Shown here: positions 1,884-53,077 of the stretch, one piece after another
Position numbering within the stretch: position 1 is the stretch's first letter
Layout: the number at the start of each line of letters is the position of its first letter
Source of the DNA: an uncultured Thermoprotei archaeon
Lineage (GTDB): Archaea; Thermoproteota; Thermoprotei; QMSL01; B3-G16
Direction of reading: 5' to 3'
Assembly (NCBI GenBank): GCA_964517845.1
Contig: CAZFCQ010000003.1
Coordinates: 35,978 to 99,977, forward strand
DNA length: 64,000 nucleotides
Made by a program: the position numbers and the translations under genes
The notes under the pieces: model-generated
The model's database searches: none
Told to the model about the DNA's origin: nothing
The model's input: only the letters and a program-made list of their open reading frames with translations

Positions 1884-2243
1884 GTGGTGAGTCTCTATAT
1901 GAGTACTATCTCTTTTAAGGCAACATTAGTTGGTAAAAACTTAGTATCTGATCCTTTTGGTGGTAAGAATGTTAAACTTGAGCTTGTTGAAGAGCGAGAA
2001 ATGCCTATGCCTATACTTATTGAGGGACAGGGTTCTAGACAAGAGCTAGCAAGAGAGCTAGCCCCAATAGTTCGGCAAGTCGTGAGATCATTACCTTTTG
2101 CTAGATCAGGAAAAGTTAGTATTCCTCGTCTTACACTATGGCTTACGGAAGATGAATGGGAAAGATTAGAGCCAAAACCCGATATAGGAGATGAAGTTCT
2201 AGTAGTAGTAAAAGGTAGGAATATAGAAATACAAAAAATTTAG
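1884..2243 (+). CDS. Hypothetical protein (119 aa)
   Basis: The ORF has coding-like composition. No family is recognised, and the start may be the internal Met at 1899. Confidence 0.3.
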   Translation: MVSLYMSTISFKATLVGKNLVSDPFGGKNVKLELVEEREMPMPILIEGQGSRQELARELAPIVRQVVRSLPFARSGKVSIPRLTLWLTEDEWERLEPKPDIGDEVLVVVKGRNIEIQKI

Positions 2244-5015: not shown

Positions 5016-5023
5016 TTTAAATA
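5016..5023 (+). promoter_or_regulatory. TATA box (TTTAAATA) of the TBP gene
   Basis: A consensus archaeal TATA lies 37 nt upstream of the ATG at 5060. An SD-like AGGTGA sits at 5047..5052. Confidence 0.45.
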
Positions 5024-5059
5024 TACCTTTATACATTTTCAATCTTAAGGTGATCATTT

Positions 5060-5651
5060 ATGCGTACGCGTAAGAAGCCGTCATATAAGATTGAAAATGT
5101 AGTAGCATCTGTAAATTTGCATCAGAAGATCGATCTAAATGCTATAGCTGAAAACGTTCCTAATGCTGAATATAACCCAGAACAGCTAGGCCAATAAGGC
5201 CTAGCTCTGAGAGTTCCCAGGTTTAGTATTCAGACTATCGAAACCTAAAACAGCTACTTTGATATTTAGCTCTGGGAAGATGGTTTGTACAGGAGCAAAG
5301 TCTGAAAAGCAAGTATATAAGACTGTTAAGTCGATAATCCGTACTTTGAAAAAGTATGGTATAGTTATCGAGAAAGAGCCTGAGATAACAATTCAAAATG
5401 TTGTAGCTTCAGGTAATCTTCACGCTGAAGTAAATCTGGAAAAAGTAGCTTATCTCCTTGAAAATAGCATGTACGAACCAGAACAATTCCCTGGTCTCAT
5501 ATATCGTATGGATGACCCTAGAGTAGTTCTTCTGATCTTTAGTAGCGGTAAATTAGTATGTACTGGTGCTAAGCGGGAAGAAGAAGTTAAAAGAGCCGTA
5601 GGTAAGATGTATGAGAAGCTAAGGAACCTGGGTGTCCTATATGAAGAATAA
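5060..5651 (+). CDS. tbp: TATA-box binding protein (TBP), interrupted after codon 42 by a 28-nt stop-containing hairpin insert. Exon 1 is 5060..5185 and the remainder is 5214..5651. The joined product is 187 aa
   Basis: Exon 1 translates as [42 protein letters not shown]. After the insert the sequence continues [31 protein letters not shown]...(second repeat)...[36 protein letters not shown], giving both TBP direct repeats. Removing exactly 28 nt restores the frame and the canonical EQ|FPGL junction. Confidence 0.8.
5186..5213 (+). other. 28-nt insert inside the TBP gene. The stem is AGCTAGGCC / GGCCTAGCT (5184..5192 / 5198..5206), the loop is AATAA (5193..5197), with in-frame TAA at 5195..5197, and the 3' tail is CTCTGAGAG
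   Basis: This is a perfect 9-bp inverted repeat read directly from the sequence. The length (28) is not a multiple of 3. The boundaries can slide by 1-2 nt because of AG microhomology. Confidence 0.7.
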
Positions 5652-6761: not shown

Positions 6762-7334
6762 ATGATAGAAATTCGATGGCATGGTCGAGGAGGACAAGGA
6801 GTAGTCACTGTTAGCCGCCTCCTTGCTATGGCTGCCCTCTATGAAGGTAAGTATGTTCAAGCAATTCCTCAATTTGGCCCCGAAACGCCCTGAAAAAGGG
6901 CGCGGGAGAGAAGTGGTGCGCCAGTTACAGGGTTTACTAGAATCAGCACTGAACCTATAGAAGTACATACTGGTGTCTACAACCCTGACATAGTTGTTGT
7001 AATAGACCCCTTTGTAATTAAGACAGTAAAAGTAACTGAAGGCCTTAAGGAGACAGGCATCTTAATAGCAAATTCCTCTAAAACTCCCTCTGAAGTAAAA
7101 AGTGAGCTAAACATAGCTAATCCAGTTTACGTAGTGGATGCAACTAAAATAGCCCTAGACATATTCAATAGACCGTTCTTCAATACTCCTATGCTTGGCG
7201 CCCTTGTAAAGGTTACAAACGTAGTTTCCTTAAATTCTGTAGAAAAAGCTATCAAAGAAAGATTTAGAGCTGAAATTGCTGAGAAAAATATACAAGCTGT
7301 AAGACGAGCTTATGAAGAGGTGAAGAGTGAATGA
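6762..7334 (+). CDS. porG: Pyruvate/2-oxoacid:ferredoxin oxidoreductase gamma subunit, with an in-frame TGA (6891..6893) inside a 24-nt hairpin insert
   Basis: The N-terminus [41 protein letters not shown] is followed by [TP*KRARE], then [34 protein letters not shown]...[15 protein letters not shown]. Without the 8 extra codons the protein aligns colinearly with PorG (canonical FG.ERRGAPV). An SD-like GAGGTGA lies upstream. Confidence 0.8.
6885..6908 (+). other. 24-nt insert inside porG. The stem is CGCCC / GGGCG (6886..6890 / 6898..6902), the loop is TGAAAAA and begins with the in-frame TGA, and the 3' tail is CGGGAG
   Basis: This is a perfect 5-bp GC stem read from the sequence. The boundaries can slide over 4 positions (GAA/GAG microhomology). 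A flanking CCCG/CGGG pairing is also possible. Confidence 0.65.
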
Positions 7335-8842: not shown

Positions 8843-9786
8843 GTCTAACTTTAAAATCATTACCTAGGGAAGAATTATTCGCCCCTGGACATAGTGCTTG
8901 CCAAGGCTGTGGAGCATCAATGGCATTACGTATCGCCTTAAAGGCTTTAAGACCTGATGAGACAGCAGTACTTGTATTCGCTACAGGATGCATGGAAGTT
9001 ATTTCAACACTATATCCCTATACTGCATGGAGAGTACCTTTCGTTCACTTAGCTTTTGAAAATGCTGCCGCAGCTGCAAGTGGGATAGAATCAGCATTAA
9101 GAGCTCTTGAAAGAAAAGGCCTCTTTAAGAGTAAGAAGAAAGTTCATGTAATTGCCATTGGAGGAGACGGAGGAACCTTCGATATCGGATTACAAGCCCT
9201 CTCAGGTGCATTAGAGAGAGGGCATAAAATGCTGTATATATGCTATGATAATGAAGCATACATGAACACTGGGATTCAAAGATCTGGAGCTACACCCTTT
9301 AGAGCTTGGACCACAACTACACCAGTTGGAAAGGAGATACCCGGTAAACCTCAATTTAAGAAGAATCTTGTAGGCATAGCTGCAGCTCACGAAATACCTT
9401 ACGCTGCAACAGCTTCACCAGCATACTGGGCTGATCTAATATCGAAGGTTCGAAAAGCTCTTGACGCTAATGGTCCCTCTTTAATACACGTGTTAGCACC
9501 GTGCCCCCTCGGTTGGCGCTTTAATTCAGCAATTACAGTGGATATCGCTAGATTAGCTGTAGAAACTAGATTCTTCCCATTATATGAAGTAATAAATGGC
9601 AGAAAATATAGGATAACCATTAAAGTACCCAAACCTAAACCCGTTACAGAGTATATCAAACTACAAGGAAGATACGCGCACCTACTTAGGCCAGAGTATA
9701 GTGATTTACTTAAGATGCTACAAGAAGCTGTAGATTCGTTCTACACATGGCTCGAACACATGGAAAAAGCCACAGCTAATTTATAA
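8839..9786 (+). CDS. porB: Pyruvate/2-oxoacid:ferredoxin oxidoreductase beta subunit (TPP-binding)
   Basis: The protein carries CQGCGASMAL and the TPP motif IGGDGG. Confidence 0.9.
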   Translation: MSLTLKSLPREELFAPGHSACQGCGASMALRIALKALRPDETAVLVFATGCMEVISTLYPYTAWRVPFVHLAFENAAAAASGIESALRALERKGLFKSKKKVHVIAIGGDGGTFDIGLQALSGALERGHKMLYICYDNEAYMNTGIQRSGATPFRAWTTTTPVGKEIPGKPQFKKNLVGIAAAHEIPYAATASPAYWADLISKVRKALDANGPSLIHVLAPCPLGWRFNSAITVDIARLAVETRFFPLYEVINGRKYRITIKVPKPKPVTEYIKLQGRYAHLLRPEYSDLLKMLQEAVDSFYTWLEHMEKATANL

Positions 9787-18977: not shown

Positions 18978-20038
18978 GGAAATTTAAAGCTGCTATCATC
19001 AGTTTTGCCCATATTCATGCATACTCTTATGCCCGCGTACTTAAAGGGCTGGATAATGTAGAGTTTGTGGCTATATGGGACGATAGAAGAGAAAGAGGGG
19101 AGCTTGCTAAAAACCGTTATGCTATCAATAAGTACTACGATGACCTAGATAAGCTTTTCAAAGAGAATAAAGATCTAGACTTTGTTATAGTAACTTCAGA
19201 AAACGCTAAACATTATGAACATGTAAAGATCGCCCTTGAGAATGATATTCATGTACTTTGTGAAAAACCTTTAACCGTTGACTTGAAACAAGCAGACGAA
19301 TTAGTAGGCCTTGCTAGAAGAAAAGGATTAAAACTAGGCACTTGCTTCGTTATGAGATTCCATACTTCTACTATCCAGGCTTATAATATCCTCCGTGAGG
19401 AGAGAATAGGTATTCCTATGTCTATTACTACTACTAATCATGGTACATGTCCATATAAAGAAGCTCACTGGTTCGTAGAGCCAGAGTTATCTTATGGAGC
19501 TCGTATAAGACTAAGGGAAGGTGATTCTAGATTTAGAGGAGGATGTATTACAGATCATACTGTACATTGTGCTGATCTTTTAAGGTGGCTTTTAGGAAGT
19601 GAAGTAAGTGAGATATACGCAGAAGTCGGAGGGAATATCAGAAGTGAACTAGAAGTCGAAGATAATGCTCTTGTAATCTTAAAATTCCGAAACGGCGTAC
19701 AGGCATCTATAGACTGCAGTTGGAGTAGACCTGAGGGCGTTTATCCAACATGGGGAGACGTTAATCTCTACATAGTAGGAACTAACGGTGCTCTTGATAT
19801 AGAAGCTTTTAATCAAAACATATGGTTGGCCACATGGGACACTCAAAGATTAGTTTTCAATTACTGGGGTACTGATGTAGACTGGAACATGATTGTACAA
19901 TTCATAGAAGCTATTGAACGAGATGAGGAACCTCGAGCTAATGGTTGGGATGGCCGTCAAGCTACTGAAATAATGCTAGCAGCTTACGAATCAGTCTCTA
20001 GAAGGAAGCCAATACGATTGCCTTTAACCCATACTTGA
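18974..20038 (+). CDS. Gfo/Idh/MocA family oxidoreductase (paralog)
   Basis: The product has the same fold (...HVLCEKPL...) and is translationally coupled to the upstream paralog by a 4-nt overlap. Confidence 0.8.
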   Translation: MRKFKAAIISFAHIHAYSYARVLKGLDNVEFVAIWDDRRERGELAKNRYAINKYYDDLDKLFKENKDLDFVIVTSENAKHYEHVKIALENDIHVLCEKPLTVDLKQADELVGLARRKGLKLGTCFVMRFHTSTIQAYNILREERIGIPMSITTTNHGTCPYKEAHWFVEPELSYGARIRLREGDSRFRGGCITDHTVHCADLLRWLLGSEVSEIYAEVGGNIRSELEVEDNALVILKFRNGVQASIDCSWSRPEGVYPTWGDVNLYIVGTNGALDIEAFNQNIWLATWDTQRLVFNYWGTDVDWNMIVQFIEAIERDEEPRANGWDGRQATEIMLAAYESVSRRKPIRLPLTHT

Positions 20039-20257
20039 GATTAAACTACTTTATTTTTATAATAACCAAATATTATAAAGAGAATTCATAAGCCAAATAC
20101 ATCCTGCATTATTATAATCACTTTACCATCTCTCGCTATACTCTTTAACTTTAACATCCATAGTGCTCCGTCGATTTCTTATAATCTTATCCTACGTTAA
20201 ATTTAAAAGGGTTTGAAGTCTATTTAAACCAACAGAGCAATGTTATATCACCTTGAA

Positions 20258-20312
20258 TTATGATGAATAGGGACTATCTGAGCTAATGATGATCATGCGG
20301 ATGTGCTGACCT
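20258..20312 (+). ncRNA. Candidate C/D box sRNA (2'-O-methylation guide)
   Basis: C box AUGAUGA at 20260..20266. D' box CUGA at 20278..20281. C' box AUGAUGA at 20286..20292. D box CUGA at 20306..20309. Guide spacers are 11 nt and 13 nt. It lies in a convergent intergenic region. Confidence 0.55.
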
Positions 20313-20341
20313 TTGTCATAACCTAATGAAATTTTCAGCAT

Positions 20342-21547
20342 TTAGAATAGAAATCTCCTCTTTATCTTCCCATAACTGGTAATGCACTCTCTAATAAGTT
20401 CCATCTTGTCAATACTTGTTAAACTATAAGAATACACCATAATTCCTTTTCTCCATACTTTAAGTGCTCTTTCTACTTCTTTCTGAATTTCATTACTTCC
20501 CATACTCTTTAAGGCTACTACTCCAGGGTATCCTTCACTTTTTAATAAACGGCGCGCTCTTAAGCATTGTTTGCTAAACCATCTAATGTCTTTCCCTAAT
20601 ATTTTGTAAAATAGAACAGGTTTCACAAGATCTACTATCCTATCTATTTCCCTATAGTCAATTCCTAGAGCCTTAGATATATCTGGAGGAGGTAGAATAG
20701 TAGATACTCTTACTCCATAGTCATGAGCAATGCTGGTCATATCGTCAAGTAACTCTGTTACTATATCTGTTCTAAAATTAAAGAAATCCTCTATATTACC
20801 GAATTTACCTAACCACTTTAGCTTTTCATAATTCCTAAATGTAAAGGCTTCTTCGAATGGTTCCTCTTTATCTTCCCTATGCAGTATTATTTTTTGTATC
20901 TTTCTCATAACGTGTTCTCTGCTTATCCTACTTAGTACATCACTTAGATTGAGGTTTCTACTCTTAGCTTCTATTCTACAATACTTACAGAAACAGGTTA
21001 TCCTGTTTCTCATAAGTGGTGATATCGGATGCCAGAATTCTCCTAATTCAATTTCCATAATGTCCTCTCTTGTTGCTAAATCTTCTATTAGTCCGAGGAG
21101 ATATCTTCTTACTTCTGGATTTAAAGGACATACCCAGGCTCCACCGTAATTAATGGGCTCTTTCACATTATCTACCATATAATATTTCATATTGTTTAAA
21201 GTCATGTTAAGACAATTAATATGAGCTACTATTTCAAGTCCATAAGAATAAGCTCTGCTAATGACATGTCTTAAGTCGAAGCATAGTAACTCTTTATATC
21301 TCTGAGGTCTAATAGATGTGGCTCTATAGAAATCATGTCGTGGCTCAAAATATAATTTTCCTGCTTCGCTTTCTCGTCCTACACTTTTATTGTCGTATGT
21401 AAGGATTAGATTCATTTTAGTAAAATTCATATTATTAATAAAGACTGATATGGAGTTAGCTCCTAGGAACCCAACAACATCGCTTAATGTTCTCTCAAGT
21501 ACATCTAAACAAAGATGTCGTGGATGCACCCACATACCTATGTACAT
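20342..21547 (-). CDS. Hypothetical protein (401 aa), possibly a glycoside-hydrolase-like TIM-barrel protein
   Basis: This is a long ORF with coding-like composition and a Cys cluster (CFCKYC). No motif is recognised with confidence. Confidence 0.4.
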   Translation of the reverse strand: MYIGMWVHPRHLCLDVLERTLSDVVGFLGANSISVFINNMNFTKMNLILTYDNKSVGRESEAGKLYFEPRHDFYRATSIRPQRYKELLCFDLRHVISRAYSYGLEIVAHINCLNMTLNNMKYYMVDNVKEPINYGGAWVCPLNPEVRRYLLGLIEDLATREDIMEIELGEFWHPISPLMRNRITCFCKYCRIEAKSRNLNLSDVLSRISREHVMRKIQKIILHREDKEEPFEEAFTFRNYEKLKWLGKFGNIEDFFNFRTDIVTELLDDMTSIAHDYGVRVSTILPPPDISKALGIDYREIDRIVDLVKPVLFYKILGKDIRWFSKQCLRARRLLKSEGYPGVVALKSMGSNEIQKEVERALKVWRKGIMVYSYSLTSIDKMELIRECITSYGKIKRRFLF

Positions 21548-21853
21548 TAGACCACCTTACCTTATGGGAATATTACTATTACCATCGCACATTGCTACGA
21601 TGATATACATAACTCACTATAGTGTTAGCATTTACTCTCATCATTATGTATGCTGAGAGGTCACTTCATGTGGTATTTTAAGTTAAAGACTTTATGAGTA
21701 TTTTGTCTGACATGGTGTATTATCCGGACACTATATATTGTCTCTAATGACACTTTTCACGTAATGGGAAAAGAAGCTATATGAAAGACGTAATACTACA
21801 GTACTAATCTTAGAAATACCAACCTCTATCTGTCCTGTAGACTCTAAAATTAG

Positions 21854-22057
21854 TTGGGTGTTGTAATGCATAGAAAAAGTCACTTAAGACTAGTAAGTAT
21901 TCACCTCCCTGAAAGCTATGTTTATGGATTAGACGAACTCGTAGACAAAGGGTTATATCCCTCAAGAAGTGAAGCTATACGCGTAGCAGTGAGAGACCTA
22001 TTAATGCGTGAACTTTGGAAAAGAAGAAGGCATAGCTCAACAAGACTTGTTGGTTGA
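21854..22057 (+). CDS. Ribbon-helix-helix (CopG/Arc-like) DNA-binding protein
   Basis: ...LRLVSIHLPESYVYGLDELVDKGLYPSRSEAIRVAVRDLLMRE has the typical RHH beta-alpha-alpha arrangement. Confidence 0.55.
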   Translation: MGVVMHRKSHLRLVSIHLPESYVYGLDELVDKGLYPSRSEAIRVAVRDLLMRELWKRRRHSSTRLVG

Positions 22058-22136
22058 TGACGTTATCTTAGGTGCAAGGCATTAACGCAAATATATAGAA
22101 AATTTTTAGAGACACTACTAATTCTATACTACTCAG

Positions 22137-40229: not shown

Positions 40230-40787
40230 TTATGCTTTAAACCACTTGAAGACATAATAGCGTATAGCACGTGTTTGTGGATGTACAACTGCTATTACAA
40301 ACCTCTTTCTAACACTATGAGAAAGTCTTCCTGCTCTTATTATTTCGATAGGATCCATTTTTGCCTCATATGGCATTACATGCACTAAAAAAGGTGCGTG
40401 GTCTATACCTGGCCCGTATCTATATACAGCAAATGTACTTCCAAACTTTAATCCTGGTCTAACTACATATCCTTTGCTTCTTAAGTCTTTATAAACCTCA
40501 TAAACATCATCAAACATATAGTATATCTTCCTTGCATATTCTCTCACATCCTCAGGCTTAAGGCTTCTCCCTTGAGAATCGAAAACCTCAATTCTCCCTT
40601 TTTCGAGAAGATAGAGAGCTTCAAGTAATGAGAGCTCGACAGGTCTCTCTATGTCTAGTTCCTTAGGTTTGCTTATGCCTACTAATTTCCCATAAAATCC
40701 CTCTTTATAAAGCCTAGGAGCTTCTCTCTTATCCCAAGCTATAATTCGAGAGCCTATGAGCACAGCTTTTATCTTATCTTCGCTCAT
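40230..40787 (-). CDS. endA: tRNA-splicing endonuclease, catalytic subunit (EndA)
   Basis: The 185-aa product has the C-terminal catalytic domain ...YRYGPGIDHAPFLVHV...RLSHSVRKRFVIAVV (Tyr/His/Lys triad context). Confidence 0.8.
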   Translation of the reverse strand: MSEDKIKAVLIGSRIIAWDKREAPRLYKEGFYGKLVGISKPKELDIERPVELSLLEALYLLEKGRIEVFDSQGRSLKPEDVREYARKIYYMFDDVYEVYKDLRSKGYVVRPGLKFGSTFAVYRYGPGIDHAPFLVHVMPYEAKMDPIEIIRAGRLSHSVRKRFVIAVVHPQTRAIRYYVFKWFKA

Positions 40788-47141: not shown

Positions 47142-48119
47142 CTAACGAACTGGTATCTTTATTTTTAGCTCTCTAGCAAGTTCTTTATACCTATTTCTTA
47201 CAGTTACCTCTGTAACTTGAGCAGCCTGTGCAACTTCTTTTTGCGTTCTTATATCTCCTTTAAGTAATGACGCTATGTATATCGCTGCAGCTGCTAATCC
47301 TGCAGGATCTTTTCCTGCTGTAAGGCCTTTCGCCCTTGCCGCTTTAAGTATTGAAATGGCCTCCCTTATAACTGTTCCATCTAGCTTTAATGCTTCAGCT
47401 ATTCGAGGTACGAAATCTACAGGATCTGCTAATGGTACCTTAACTGCTCCCTCTCTTAATAAGAGTCTATAGCATCTAGCAACTTCTTTCTTTCCTCCTC
47501 TAGTATACTTGGCTATTTCATCAAGTGTTCGAGGAATTCTTAACTCTCTACATGCAGCGTATATCGCTGCAGCCATTACAGACTCTATGCTTCTTCCTCT
47601 TACTAACCCTTTCTCTACAGCACGTCTATAAATCTCCATCGCTTGTTCCTTAACGCTTTTAGGTAATCCTAACTGAGAGGAAATTCGTTCTAACTCTATA
47701 CTTGCTTGTTGCAAATTTCTCTCTAATGAGGTTTGTACTTTACTTCTCATTTGCCACTTTCGAAGTCGAAGCATCTCTAATCTACGTTTGTATGTTATCT
47801 CTCTTCCTAATGCATCCTTGCCTCTCCAATCTATGACGGTAGTAAGATTGTCGGGTGTAGCTCGAGTAAGCGGAGCACCTACACGACTTCTCCTAAGTTT
47901 CTCCTCCGGAGTGAAAGCTCGCCATTCAGGTCCTAAATCTATAAGCTTCTCATCTAGTACTAAACCACAGTTAGTACAGACTACTTCTCCTCTTTCATAA
48001 TTATAAGTGAAGGTATCATTACCACATGCAGGACACTTAATAGGTAAGGTTATTAACTCATCCGGTGAAGAGTGAGCATGCCTTCTTCTATTAACTTCTC
48101 TCACAATAACCACCTCCAT
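47142..48119 (-). CDS. tfb: Transcription initiation factor IIB (TFB)
   Basis: An N-terminal Zn ribbon CPACG...CTNCG is followed by two cyclin-like repeats. Confidence 0.9.
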
Positions 48120-50723: not shown

Positions 50724-50799
50724 TGGTAGCCCGGCGGGGATTCGAACCCCGGTCGGCGGGGCCAGAGCCCGCCATGCTTGGCCGCTACACCACCGGGCT
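50724..50799 (-). tRNA. tRNA-Gln (anticodon CUG), 76 nt including a genomically encoded 3' CCA
   Basis: The cloverleaf was derived by hand. The acceptor is AGCCCGG/CCGGGCU. The T-arm is CGGGG-UUCGAAU-CCCCG. The anticodon stem is GCGGG/CCCGC with loop CUCUGGC (U33, CUG, G37). Confidence 0.85.
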
Positions 50800-52240: not shown

Positions 52241-53077
52241 CTAACTAATTTTACTCCTTAAGAAGATAAGTATACTCCTCAAGTCATCAATTGATACGCG
52301 TTTATTCCTACTTAGCCAGAACATTTCTAGTAAAATAAAGTGGGCTTTGCTATTGTTTATAAGATTCACCATATTATCGATATCAATATCTCCCTTTCCT
52401 AATAGGAAGTGATCTCGTACTTTTTCTCCTTCAACTCTGTAATCGTGAATGTGAATTACTTTGACTTTATCTCCTAATGTCCTAAACCATTTTTCAAGTT
52501 CACTAGTCTCTTTTAGTTCTTCTTTCTTAGTATTAGCAACTATCATGTGCCCTATATCAAGGCACATGTAGAGGTTTCCTATTTCATGAAGTATAGTATT
52601 TATTTCCTCTATCTTACCAAGGAATTCCGTTGGGTTATTTTCCAGCGTAGGTTTCACTCCTGCTTCATTACATAACCTAACGATTTCCTTTATGGATCTC
52701 TTAGTAGCTTGATAAACTGCTTTATAGACTTCTTCATACTCCGTAGCTTCTTTAGTAAAGATATGAAAATTAAAATATTCACTCTCTAGCTTCTCTGCAA
52801 AAGATATGCACTTTTTATATACCTTAAGAGATGCTACTCTTAAATTCTCTCTAGGGCTAGCTAAGCTTATATCTCTCCAAGGAGCATGAATCCCAACCTT
52901 GAAGTCATACTCTTTAATAAGCTTCTTCACTCTATTAAAAACGATCTCATCGATAATTTCTGGCCATGGATAGTCCAATGAAATTTCTACATAATCGAAT
53001 CCCTTTTCGTAGGCTATCTGTAAGACATCATCTATTCTACCACTTCCATACCATATAGGTAAACCAAAATATCTCAT
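52241..53077 (-). CDS. Sugar phosphate isomerase/epimerase (xylose-isomerase-like TIM barrel)
   Basis: AP-endonuclease-2 / XylA-like TIM barrel motifs are present. Confidence 0.6.
   Translation of the reverse strand: MRYFGLPIWYGSGRIDDVLQIAYEKGFDYVEISLDYPWPEIIDEIVFNRVKKLIKEYDFKVGIHAPWRDISLASPRENLRVASLKVYKKCISFAEKLESEYFNFHIFTKEATEYEEVYKAVYQATKRSIKEIVRLCNEAGVKPTLENNPTEFLGKIEEINTILHEIGNLYMCLDIGHMIVANTKKEELKETSELEKWFRTLGDKVKVIHIHDYRVEGEKVRDHFLLGKGDIDIDNMVNLINNSKAHFILLEMFWLSRNKRVSIDDLRSILIFLRSKIS

Follow-up and report, generated by a model that had tools for sequence, protein, structure and literature searches.

Probable Bulge-Helix-Bulge Introns in Archaeal mRNAs

Introns of the bulge-helix-bulge (BHB) type, that of the cbf5 pre-mRNA included, are cleaved between the second and third nucleotides of each bulge (PMC2738675). 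In the literature, mRNAs carrying such introns are represented by cbf5, which is interrupted within its coding sequence in Desulfurococcales and Sulfolobales (PMC2738675), and by HVO_1309, where the intron lies in the 5' untranslated region (UTR) and its removal matters for expression (PMC7714728). A 2023 review considers that further mRNA BHB introns probably await discovery, and no literature was found on BHB introns in the gene for the TATA-binding protein (TBP). The present analysis concerns a stretch of 64,000 nucleotides (nt) from an uncultured Thermoprotei archaeon (assembly GCA_964517845.1, contig CAZFCQ010000003.1, positions 35,978 to 99,977), called here the window, whose TBP gene is interrupted by 28 nt. 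Judging from the sequence and its relatives, these 28 nt (5184-5211 of the window, plus strand) are, with a probability of about 90%, an archaeal BHB intron in the TBP pre-mRNA. The predicted intron joins a very rare kind, cbf5 being the only coding-sequence case previously reported in the literature found. Two features come in addition to those of known mRNA BHB introns: in some relatives, the corresponding site of the second TBP repeat is occupied as well, and the hairpin loop carries a conserved stop codon.

The Interrupted TBP Gene

Read from the ATG at 5060, the TBP open reading frame (ORF) encodes 42 TBP residues (...AEYNPEQ), followed by LGQ and a UAA stop codon (5195-5197). TBP coding picks up again in the +1 frame, spans both TBP repeats, and ends with a stop at 5651. 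This split frame, with 42 codons and then a +1 resumption, had been described in an earlier note made from the sequence of the window, and is confirmed by translation. The same note held that removing 28 nt regenerates the EQ|FPGL junction. This proved right, with two further equivalent solutions: deleting 5184-5211, 5185-5212, or 5186-5213 restores the TBP frame and yields an identical 187-amino-acid (aa) protein each time, because the flanking bases repeat. The 9-bp perfect palindrome reported there, AGCTAGGCC-AATAA-GGCCTAGCT with TAA within its loop, is indeed present at 5184-5206.

The predicted spliced TBP (187 aa) contains two complete Pfam TBP (PF00352) domains, scoring 231.7 bits, and the match of repeat 1 extends from position 2 to position 85 of the 85-position profile, unbroken over the splice junction. 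In the precomputed matches, Pfam TBP also recognizes the 45-aa N-terminal ORF. Gene callers split the gene into ORFs of 45 and 123 aa, choosing the ATG at 5280 as the second start. In-frame starts downstream of the insert are found at this ATG and at a TTG (5259); a TBP made from either would be missing a portion of repeat 1. Upstream of the gene lies a putative promoter and ribosome-binding region (5016-5054), read directly from the sequence, in which the TATA box and Shine-Dalgarno (SD) sequence mentioned in the earlier note are seen as the TATA-like element TTTAAATA (5016-5023) and AGGTGAT (5048-5054). Both TTTAAATA and GGTGA elements are also found upstream of the TBP orthologue of a relative (clade locus L084).

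The insert is structured beyond what chance would give. The 66-nt region around it folds with an energy of -24.6 kcal/mol (z = -3.87), a stability attained by none of 200 shuffled sequences. GC-rich perfect hairpins are scarce in the window, whose GC content is 37%: only six were counted in the 64 kb, and two of these correspond to the TBP insert and to an analogous insert in the gene of the gamma subunit of pyruvate/2-oxoacid:ferredoxin oxidoreductase (POR-gamma), which is described below.

Bulge-Helix-Bulge Geometry

The minimum free energy (MFE) fold provides the central helix, the 5' bulge, and the inner helix of the motif. The central helix H (5178-5209) has 4 bp, in which CAGA of the exon (5178-5181) pairs with UCUG of the intron (5206-5209). 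Next to it come the 5' bulge ACA (5182-5184), with a predicted cut between C5183 and A5184, and the 8-bp inner helix h' (5185-5205), formed by GCUAGGCC (5185-5192) and GGCCUAGC (5198-5205). This helix is closed by the hairpin loop AAUAA (5193-5197), which holds the in-frame UAA at 5195-5197. The 3' bulge AGA (5210-5212), with a predicted cut between G5211 and A5212, is followed by a weak outer helix h (5174-5215), in which AAC (5174-5176) faces GUU (5213-5215) and C5177 is unpaired. The TBP insert of the window, therefore, displays two 3-nt bulges on opposite strands with a 4-bp helix between them. Because of the weakness of the outer helix, the motif is a relaxed one and not a strict hBHBh'.

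Applied to this fold, the published cleavage rule (PMC2738675) removes 5184-5211, which is among the three frame-restoring deletions. The boundaries proposed earlier, 5186-5213, give the same product, but the BHB geometry puts the biologically meaningful boundaries two nucleotides upstream, at 5184-5211. With boundaries predicted in this way, the gene would consist of exon 1 (5060-5183), made of 41 codons and the first base (C) of the Gln-42 codon; of the 28-nt intron (5184-5211), AGCUAGGCCAAUAAGGCCUAGCUCUGAG; and of exon 2 (5212-5651), in which AG completes Gln-42 before FPGL... and the rest of the protein up to the stop codon. The predicted spliced junction is AACCCAGAAC|AGTTCCCAGG.

Conservation and Covariation in Relatives

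Relatives were found by a search with the N-terminal TBP fragment, which returned seven clusters of TBP fragments of 42-58 aa. These are 82-92% identical, originate from uncultured 'Thermoprotei archaeon' metagenome-assembled genomes (MAGs) and from metagenomes, and are named 'hypothetical protein' by NCBI. The contigs are syntenic, the genes following one another in the order arcadin-1, Rpb6, thermosome, signal peptidase, TBP, GNAT acetyltransferase, Hsp20, and POR. The comparison with related TBP loci, which the earlier note had suggested, places the intron at the identical site in at least seven clusters, that is, in all those found, with compensatory changes between them. The six distinct complete sequences of this repeat-1 intron measure 26, 27, 28, 28, 31, and 32 nt, a seventh (L095) being broken by a scaffold gap. 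In every TBP intron of the relatives, the cleavage rule regenerates EQ|FPGL.

The structure was evaluated on an alignment of eight TBP introns, in which 95% of the cells are paired and the bulge-helix arrangement is common to all. Helix H is 97% paired and includes one compensatory pair, while h' has 8 bp, five of which covary, so that six helix pairs of the TBP intron are changed on both sides. The outer helix, consisting of 3 bp and an unpaired C in the repeat-1 introns, is paired in 92% of its cells, with zero compensatory changes. The covariation score reaches 0.452, against 0.212 in shuffles, and none of 500 shuffles scored as high; when the partners are slid by 1 to 3 columns in either direction, pairing falls to 16-50%. 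By this measure, the structure of the TBP introns is kept by compensatory change. The most telling of the covarying pairs links exon and intron: A5179, the synonymous third base of an exon Pro codon, pairs with U5208 of the intron, and four of the sequences have A-U here, the other four G-C. Run without a supplied structure, RNAalifold recovers three of the four H pairs and the inner stem, with compensatory changes in seven of its 11 pairs.

The coding sequences on both sides of the interruption are constrained as well. Since dS is saturated between clade genomes, codon-position identities were used in its place: in both TBP exons, positions 1 and 2 are 84-100% identical, versus 29-58% for position 3, and at the protein level either exon shows 84-99% identity. 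The conservation of positions 1 and 2 alongside a diverged position 3 indicates that the spliced TBP frame is under strong purifying selection.

Some relatives (L091, L092, and L095) carry a second TBP intron, located in repeat 2 at the EQ|FPGL site that is homologous to the one in repeat 1. It is 27 nt long, in frame, and carries UAG; it extends over 3965-3991 in L091, is identical in L092, and is located at about 1693-1719 in L095. In L091, this repeat-2 intron is a strict hBHBh' motif, with a clean 4-bp outer helix, GAAC/GUUC. The occupation of the homologous site suggests either intragenic copying or a favoured insertion site.

A Second Interrupted Gene, POR-gamma

The gene encoding POR-gamma sits 1.7 kb downstream of TBP, within the POR operon, and gene callers either split or miss it. 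Its exon 1 (6762-6884, plus strand) is followed by a predicted in-frame intron of 24 nt (6885-6908), which contains UGA (6891-6893), and by exon 2 (6909-7334). Helix H is formed by CCCG (6879-6882) and CGGG (6903-6906), the bulges are AAA (6883-6885) and AGA (6907-6909), and h' is a 6-bp GC stem pairing CGCCCU (6886-6891) with AGGGCG (6897-6902). Excision yields FGPE|RSGAPV at the predicted junction GGCCCCGAA|AGAAGTGGTG, and the Pfam POR score is 160.8 bits for the spliced protein versus 146.9 bits for the sequence read through. The intron is found in four genomes, with lengths of 24 (the window), 23, 22, and 20 nt. Its excision regenerates FGPE|R.GAP in all four, and one compensatory stem change is seen. 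Decoding of the in-frame UGA as selenocysteine, or its readthrough, is ruled out, since the orthologous introns are frame-shifting and have UAG or UAA as their stop. A joint MAFFT alignment of the TBP and POR introns was discarded, being out of structural register.

Taking the introns of TBP repeats 1 and 2 and of POR-gamma together, the predicted cuts match the rule of the splicing endonuclease, EndA, in 12 out of 12. An in-frame stop codon is present in the hairpin loop of each of these 12 introns, with variable loop length, loop sequence, and stop identity, for a chance expectation of 0.08-0.35 per intron. This in-loop stop may act as a fail-safe against the translation of unspliced mRNA.

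Specificity of the Signal

When the window was scanned loosely for BHB motifs, whether or not ORF rescue was demanded, hundreds of matches appeared at the random rate (52 observed vs 46-68 in Markov simulations), and only TBP and POR-gamma stood out. In its strict form, the scan asks for a stem no shorter than 6 bp, a loop no longer than 9 nt, an intron that contains a stop, and an ORF rescued by the excision. With these settings there was no match in the 475 kb of 80 other archaeal TBP loci, versus two in the window, and all the described introns of the clade loci were recovered. In GTDB representative genomes, the 80 best TBP loci are all uninterrupted; apparent length excesses among them turned out to be cross-matches between repeat 1 and repeat 2. 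A metagenome scan with a degenerate DNA pattern of the intron matched only two already-known Guaymas contigs. The top protein match (P0001, 275 aa, on a 1754-nt ENA contig) was rejected as a TBP with three repeats, unrelated to the clade.

Within the window, no other truncated gene was found by Pfam among about 65 ORFs, and the same-strand gene junctions with small gaps all resemble ordinary stop/SD/start boundaries. The other GC-rich hairpins, at 9196-9223 (POR-beta), 47553-47571 (TFB), 52544-52568, and 1399-1424, were discarded as lying inside intact coding sequences. The last of these is a 7-bp hairpin on the minus strand with BHB-like flanks (GTAC ttg GGGCGAT gtaag ATCGCCT GTAC aaa), antisense to an intact metallophosphoesterase gene (1289-1846), and is probably due to chance.

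The Splicing Endonuclease

A gene for EndA, the catalytic alpha subunit of the tRNA-splicing endonuclease (185 aa; Pfam PF02778 and PF01974), is present in the window at 40230-40787, on the minus strand. Its best PDB matches are 3P1Z_B from Aeropyrum pernix (2.5e-52), then 3AJV_B, and the Pyrobaculum 2ZYZ_B, all of them alpha subunits of heterotetrameric crenarchaeal enzymes, while the homotetrameric M. jannaschii enzyme matches at just 1.4e-23. The Crenarchaea-specific loop aligns without gaps, K40-P41-K42 of the window protein corresponding to K44-P45-R46 of A. pernix. The window alpha subunit is, in these respects, that of an (alpha-beta)2-type endonuclease with the Crenarchaea-specific loop. 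This loop, together with Lys44, gives the enzyme a broad specificity for relaxed motifs at non-canonical positions (PMC3241643). The EndA encoded in the window is predicted to be the enzyme that cuts the TBP and POR-gamma introns.

Proposed Mechanism and Points Against It

In the proposed mechanism, the exon sequence CAGA would pair with UCUG of the intron in the transcript, giving the 4-bp central helix; on its flanks would lie the bulges ACA and AGA, of 3 nt each, and the GC-rich 8-bp hairpin of the intron. A splicing endonuclease containing the EndA subunit would then cut after the second nucleotide of each bulge, and an RNA ligase would join ...GAAC to AGUUC...; the archaeal RNA ligase for such joining is RtcB. 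The join would rebuild the Gln codon and EQ|FPGL, and thereby the normal two-repeat TBP of 187 aa, whereas translation of the unspliced TBP mRNA would end at the in-loop UAA.

Several observations weigh against this interpretation. Regarding the fold itself, the MFE structure pairs G5211, the middle nucleotide of the 3' bulge, with C5177, and the outer helix of the TBP intron is weak, with its 3 bp and unpaired C. RNAalifold pairs U5206 with A5184 (A17:U43), extending the hairpin, instead of with A5181 (A14). The canonical register of H was retained because it is the only one that predicts a cut keeping the conserved Gln, but the ambiguity between the A5181 and A5184 pairings of U5206 is real. 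In POR-gamma, the 3' side in effect forms a loop, resembling a bulge-helix-loop (BHL) motif, and the z-score of the fold is only -1.2. As for the machinery, neither the EndA beta subunit nor RtcB was found by Pfam annotation among the ORFs of the 64-kb window. Lastly, spliced or intron-less forms of these proteins are absent from a collection of 15 billion proteins, so that the splicing of the TBP intron, in the sense of actual cleavage and ligation, is an inference.

Alternative Explanations

Removal at the RNA level could take a different form, either through machinery other than EndA and RtcB or as a regulated and partial splicing, in which the unspliced mRNA would be the main form and the 45-aa peptide or the C-terminal fragment would have a role of its own. 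The relaxed outer helix fits such a scheme, and the stop kept in the loop of every intron may hint at a role of the unspliced state. However, the geometry fits the EndA rule exactly in all 12 introns, the gene of a suitable EndA lies close by, and the downstream starts at TTG 5259 and ATG 5280 would, in the case of partial splicing, provide a TBP devoid of part of repeat 1. This explanation is improbable, even if it fares best among the alternatives. Splicing of the IRE1 type was also considered and rejected: it needs two adjacent stem-loops with sites in 7-nt loops, while the insert forms a single hairpin whose predicted cuts are in bulges separated by 4 bp.

The earlier note had concluded that the insert is removed at the RNA or translation level, and it is the RNA level that the BHB geometry and its conservation support. 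In a translational bypass, the ribosome would leave the mRNA at GAA or CAG, skip the hairpin and the stop, and land before UUC. Of the alternatives, this is the only one that has some superficial attraction: the insert is a short, GC-rich hairpin within a genome rich in AT, a stop codon comes shortly after the take-off region, and the whole resembles T4 gene 60 and the GC-rich 'byp' elements of yeast mitochondria; in the window, GAA (5180-5182) and GAG (5211-5213) could even serve as synonymous take-off and landing codons. The relatives speak against it: the codon right before exon 2, where the ribosome would have to land, is UAG in L086 and L094 and UAA in L095, leaving no matched landing codon. 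Taking off from GAA would, moreover, cost the Gln of EQFPGL, which is retained in repeat 2 and in the retrieved homologues. A ribosomal hop has no need of covariation between exon and insert, nor of conserved 3-nt bulges 4 bp apart, and it sits poorly with insert lengths of 20-32 nt in two unrelated genes. Bypass is, thus, disfavoured, and is a shade less plausible than RNA-level removal by other machinery or with partial splicing.

That the gene is a pseudogene, i.e., a disrupted TBP copy with an intact paralogue elsewhere in the genome, was judged unlikely in the earlier note, and the comparison with relatives bears this out: synonymous sites are saturated, yet the proteins remain conserved in both exons under purifying selection, and the interruption is held at the same site with its structure maintained. 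Promoter and SD elements are retained, and POR-gamma, within the POR operon, shows the same pattern. A total of 8000 scored TBP homologues included no intact close paralogue, the closest intact TBP being 78% identical and coming from a MAG of a different lineage, Methanomethylicia. The pseudogene explanation is, consequently, very hard to maintain.

Finally, the addition of 28 nt by an assembly or sequencing artefact, a general possibility in MAGs and otherwise without anything in its favour, can be given practically no credit, as the earlier note had anticipated for sequencing error: the 81-nt region is identical in at least three independent assemblies (MEGAHIT, SPAdes, and JGI) from different samples, two assemblies represent strain variants (99.3-99.5% identical, with 36-39 other differences over about 7-8.4 kb), and orthologous introns of differing sequence occur in other species.

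Other Features of the Window

The only tRNA gene detected in the window by ARAGORN and Rfam, which intron-containing or split tRNAs may escape, is a tRNA-Gln (CUG) without intron, at 50724-50799; this tRNA is also the sole Rfam match in the 64 kb. Two regions, 21556-22133 and 20038-20342, contain unusually long runs, of 576 and 303 nt, respectively, without an ORF of at least 70 codons or an Rfam match. An arcadin-1 homologue (1884-2243, plus strand; Pfam PF18653, 116 bits) adjoins the Rpb6 and thermosome genes. Arcadins are partners of the crenactin cytoskeleton, and this homologue is a possible clue to the affinities of the lineage.

Significance

A general transcription factor, TBP, and an enzyme of central metabolism, POR-gamma, are interrupted clade-wide in these archaea, with comparative proof of constraint. 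Gene callers split genes interrupted by such introns, and a simple signature for finding more of them is a compact GC-rich BHB motif whose loop holds a stop codon and whose excision rescues the ORF. The clade also offers a tractable system for studying the invasion of mRNAs by tRNA-type introns, and splicing alongside coupled transcription and translation. Beyond this, it is conceivable, although rather doubtful at this stage, that the introns colonise paralogous or palindromic sites, that the in-loop stop serves as a fail-safe, and that TBP splicing couples global transcription to EndA and RtcB. Colonisation of such sites may be envisaged because EQ|FPGL is an intron site in repeat 1 and repeat 2 of TBP alike, and, if true, the coupling of TBP splicing to EndA/RtcB would be an archaeal parallel to XBP1/HAC1.

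Comparison with Known Systems

Some of the systems that the TBP insert calls to mind differ from it in mechanism. T4 gene 60 and the mitochondrial byps are likewise short hairpin inserts with a stop, in an essential ORF from which one protein is made; unlike the predicted TBP intron, they act on the ribosome and need matched take-off and landing codons, which the relatives do not offer. The splicing of XBP1 and HAC1, which PMC13149111 mentions, is IRE1-dependent and spliceosome-independent. It takes a short intron, measuring 26 nt in XBP1, out of the mRNA of a transcription factor and thereby shifts the frame, is stress-regulated, and involves an RtcB-type ligation in metazoa. Here, the difference lies in the nuclease, which is IRE1 for XBP1 and HAC1, and in the motif, which consists of twin stem-loops.

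The non-canonical tRNA introns of Crenarchaeota and Thermoproteales (BHB or BHL motifs off position 37/38) are closer, as they share the motif, the loop-bearing type of enzyme, and the small sizes. The TBP substrate differs from them in being an mRNA without a tRNA body, from which excision must keep the reading frame. In Haloferax volcanii, the archaeal splicing endonuclease likewise acts on an mRNA, the HVO_1309 transcript (Schwarz et al. 2020, PMC7714728). In contrast with the TBP intron, its intron lies in the 5' UTR, so that no frame is interrupted, and it belongs to a euryarchaeon with an alpha2-type enzyme.

The closest system is the cbf5 intron (Watanabe et al. 2002; Yoshinari et al. 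2006; Yokobori et al. 2009, PMC2738675), which is likewise BHB-like and located within a coding sequence. It is also relaxed, is cut by the heterotetrameric crenarchaeal endonuclease between the second and third bulge nucleotides, and is confined to a clade in which it has been gained and lost (PMC2738675). The 64-kb window contains no cbf5 gene according to Pfam, and the TBP intron has no sequence homology to the cbf5 intron; it is, therefore, an analogue and not a member of the cbf5 intron family. Compared with cbf5, the hosts are TBP and POR-gamma, in uncultured 'Thermoprotei' MAGs whose TBP is closest to that of Methanomethylicia. Two introns are possible in one gene, at homologous sites of an internal repeat, and the introns are compact (20-32 nt), consisting almost entirely of a GC-rich hairpin with a stop codon in its loop.

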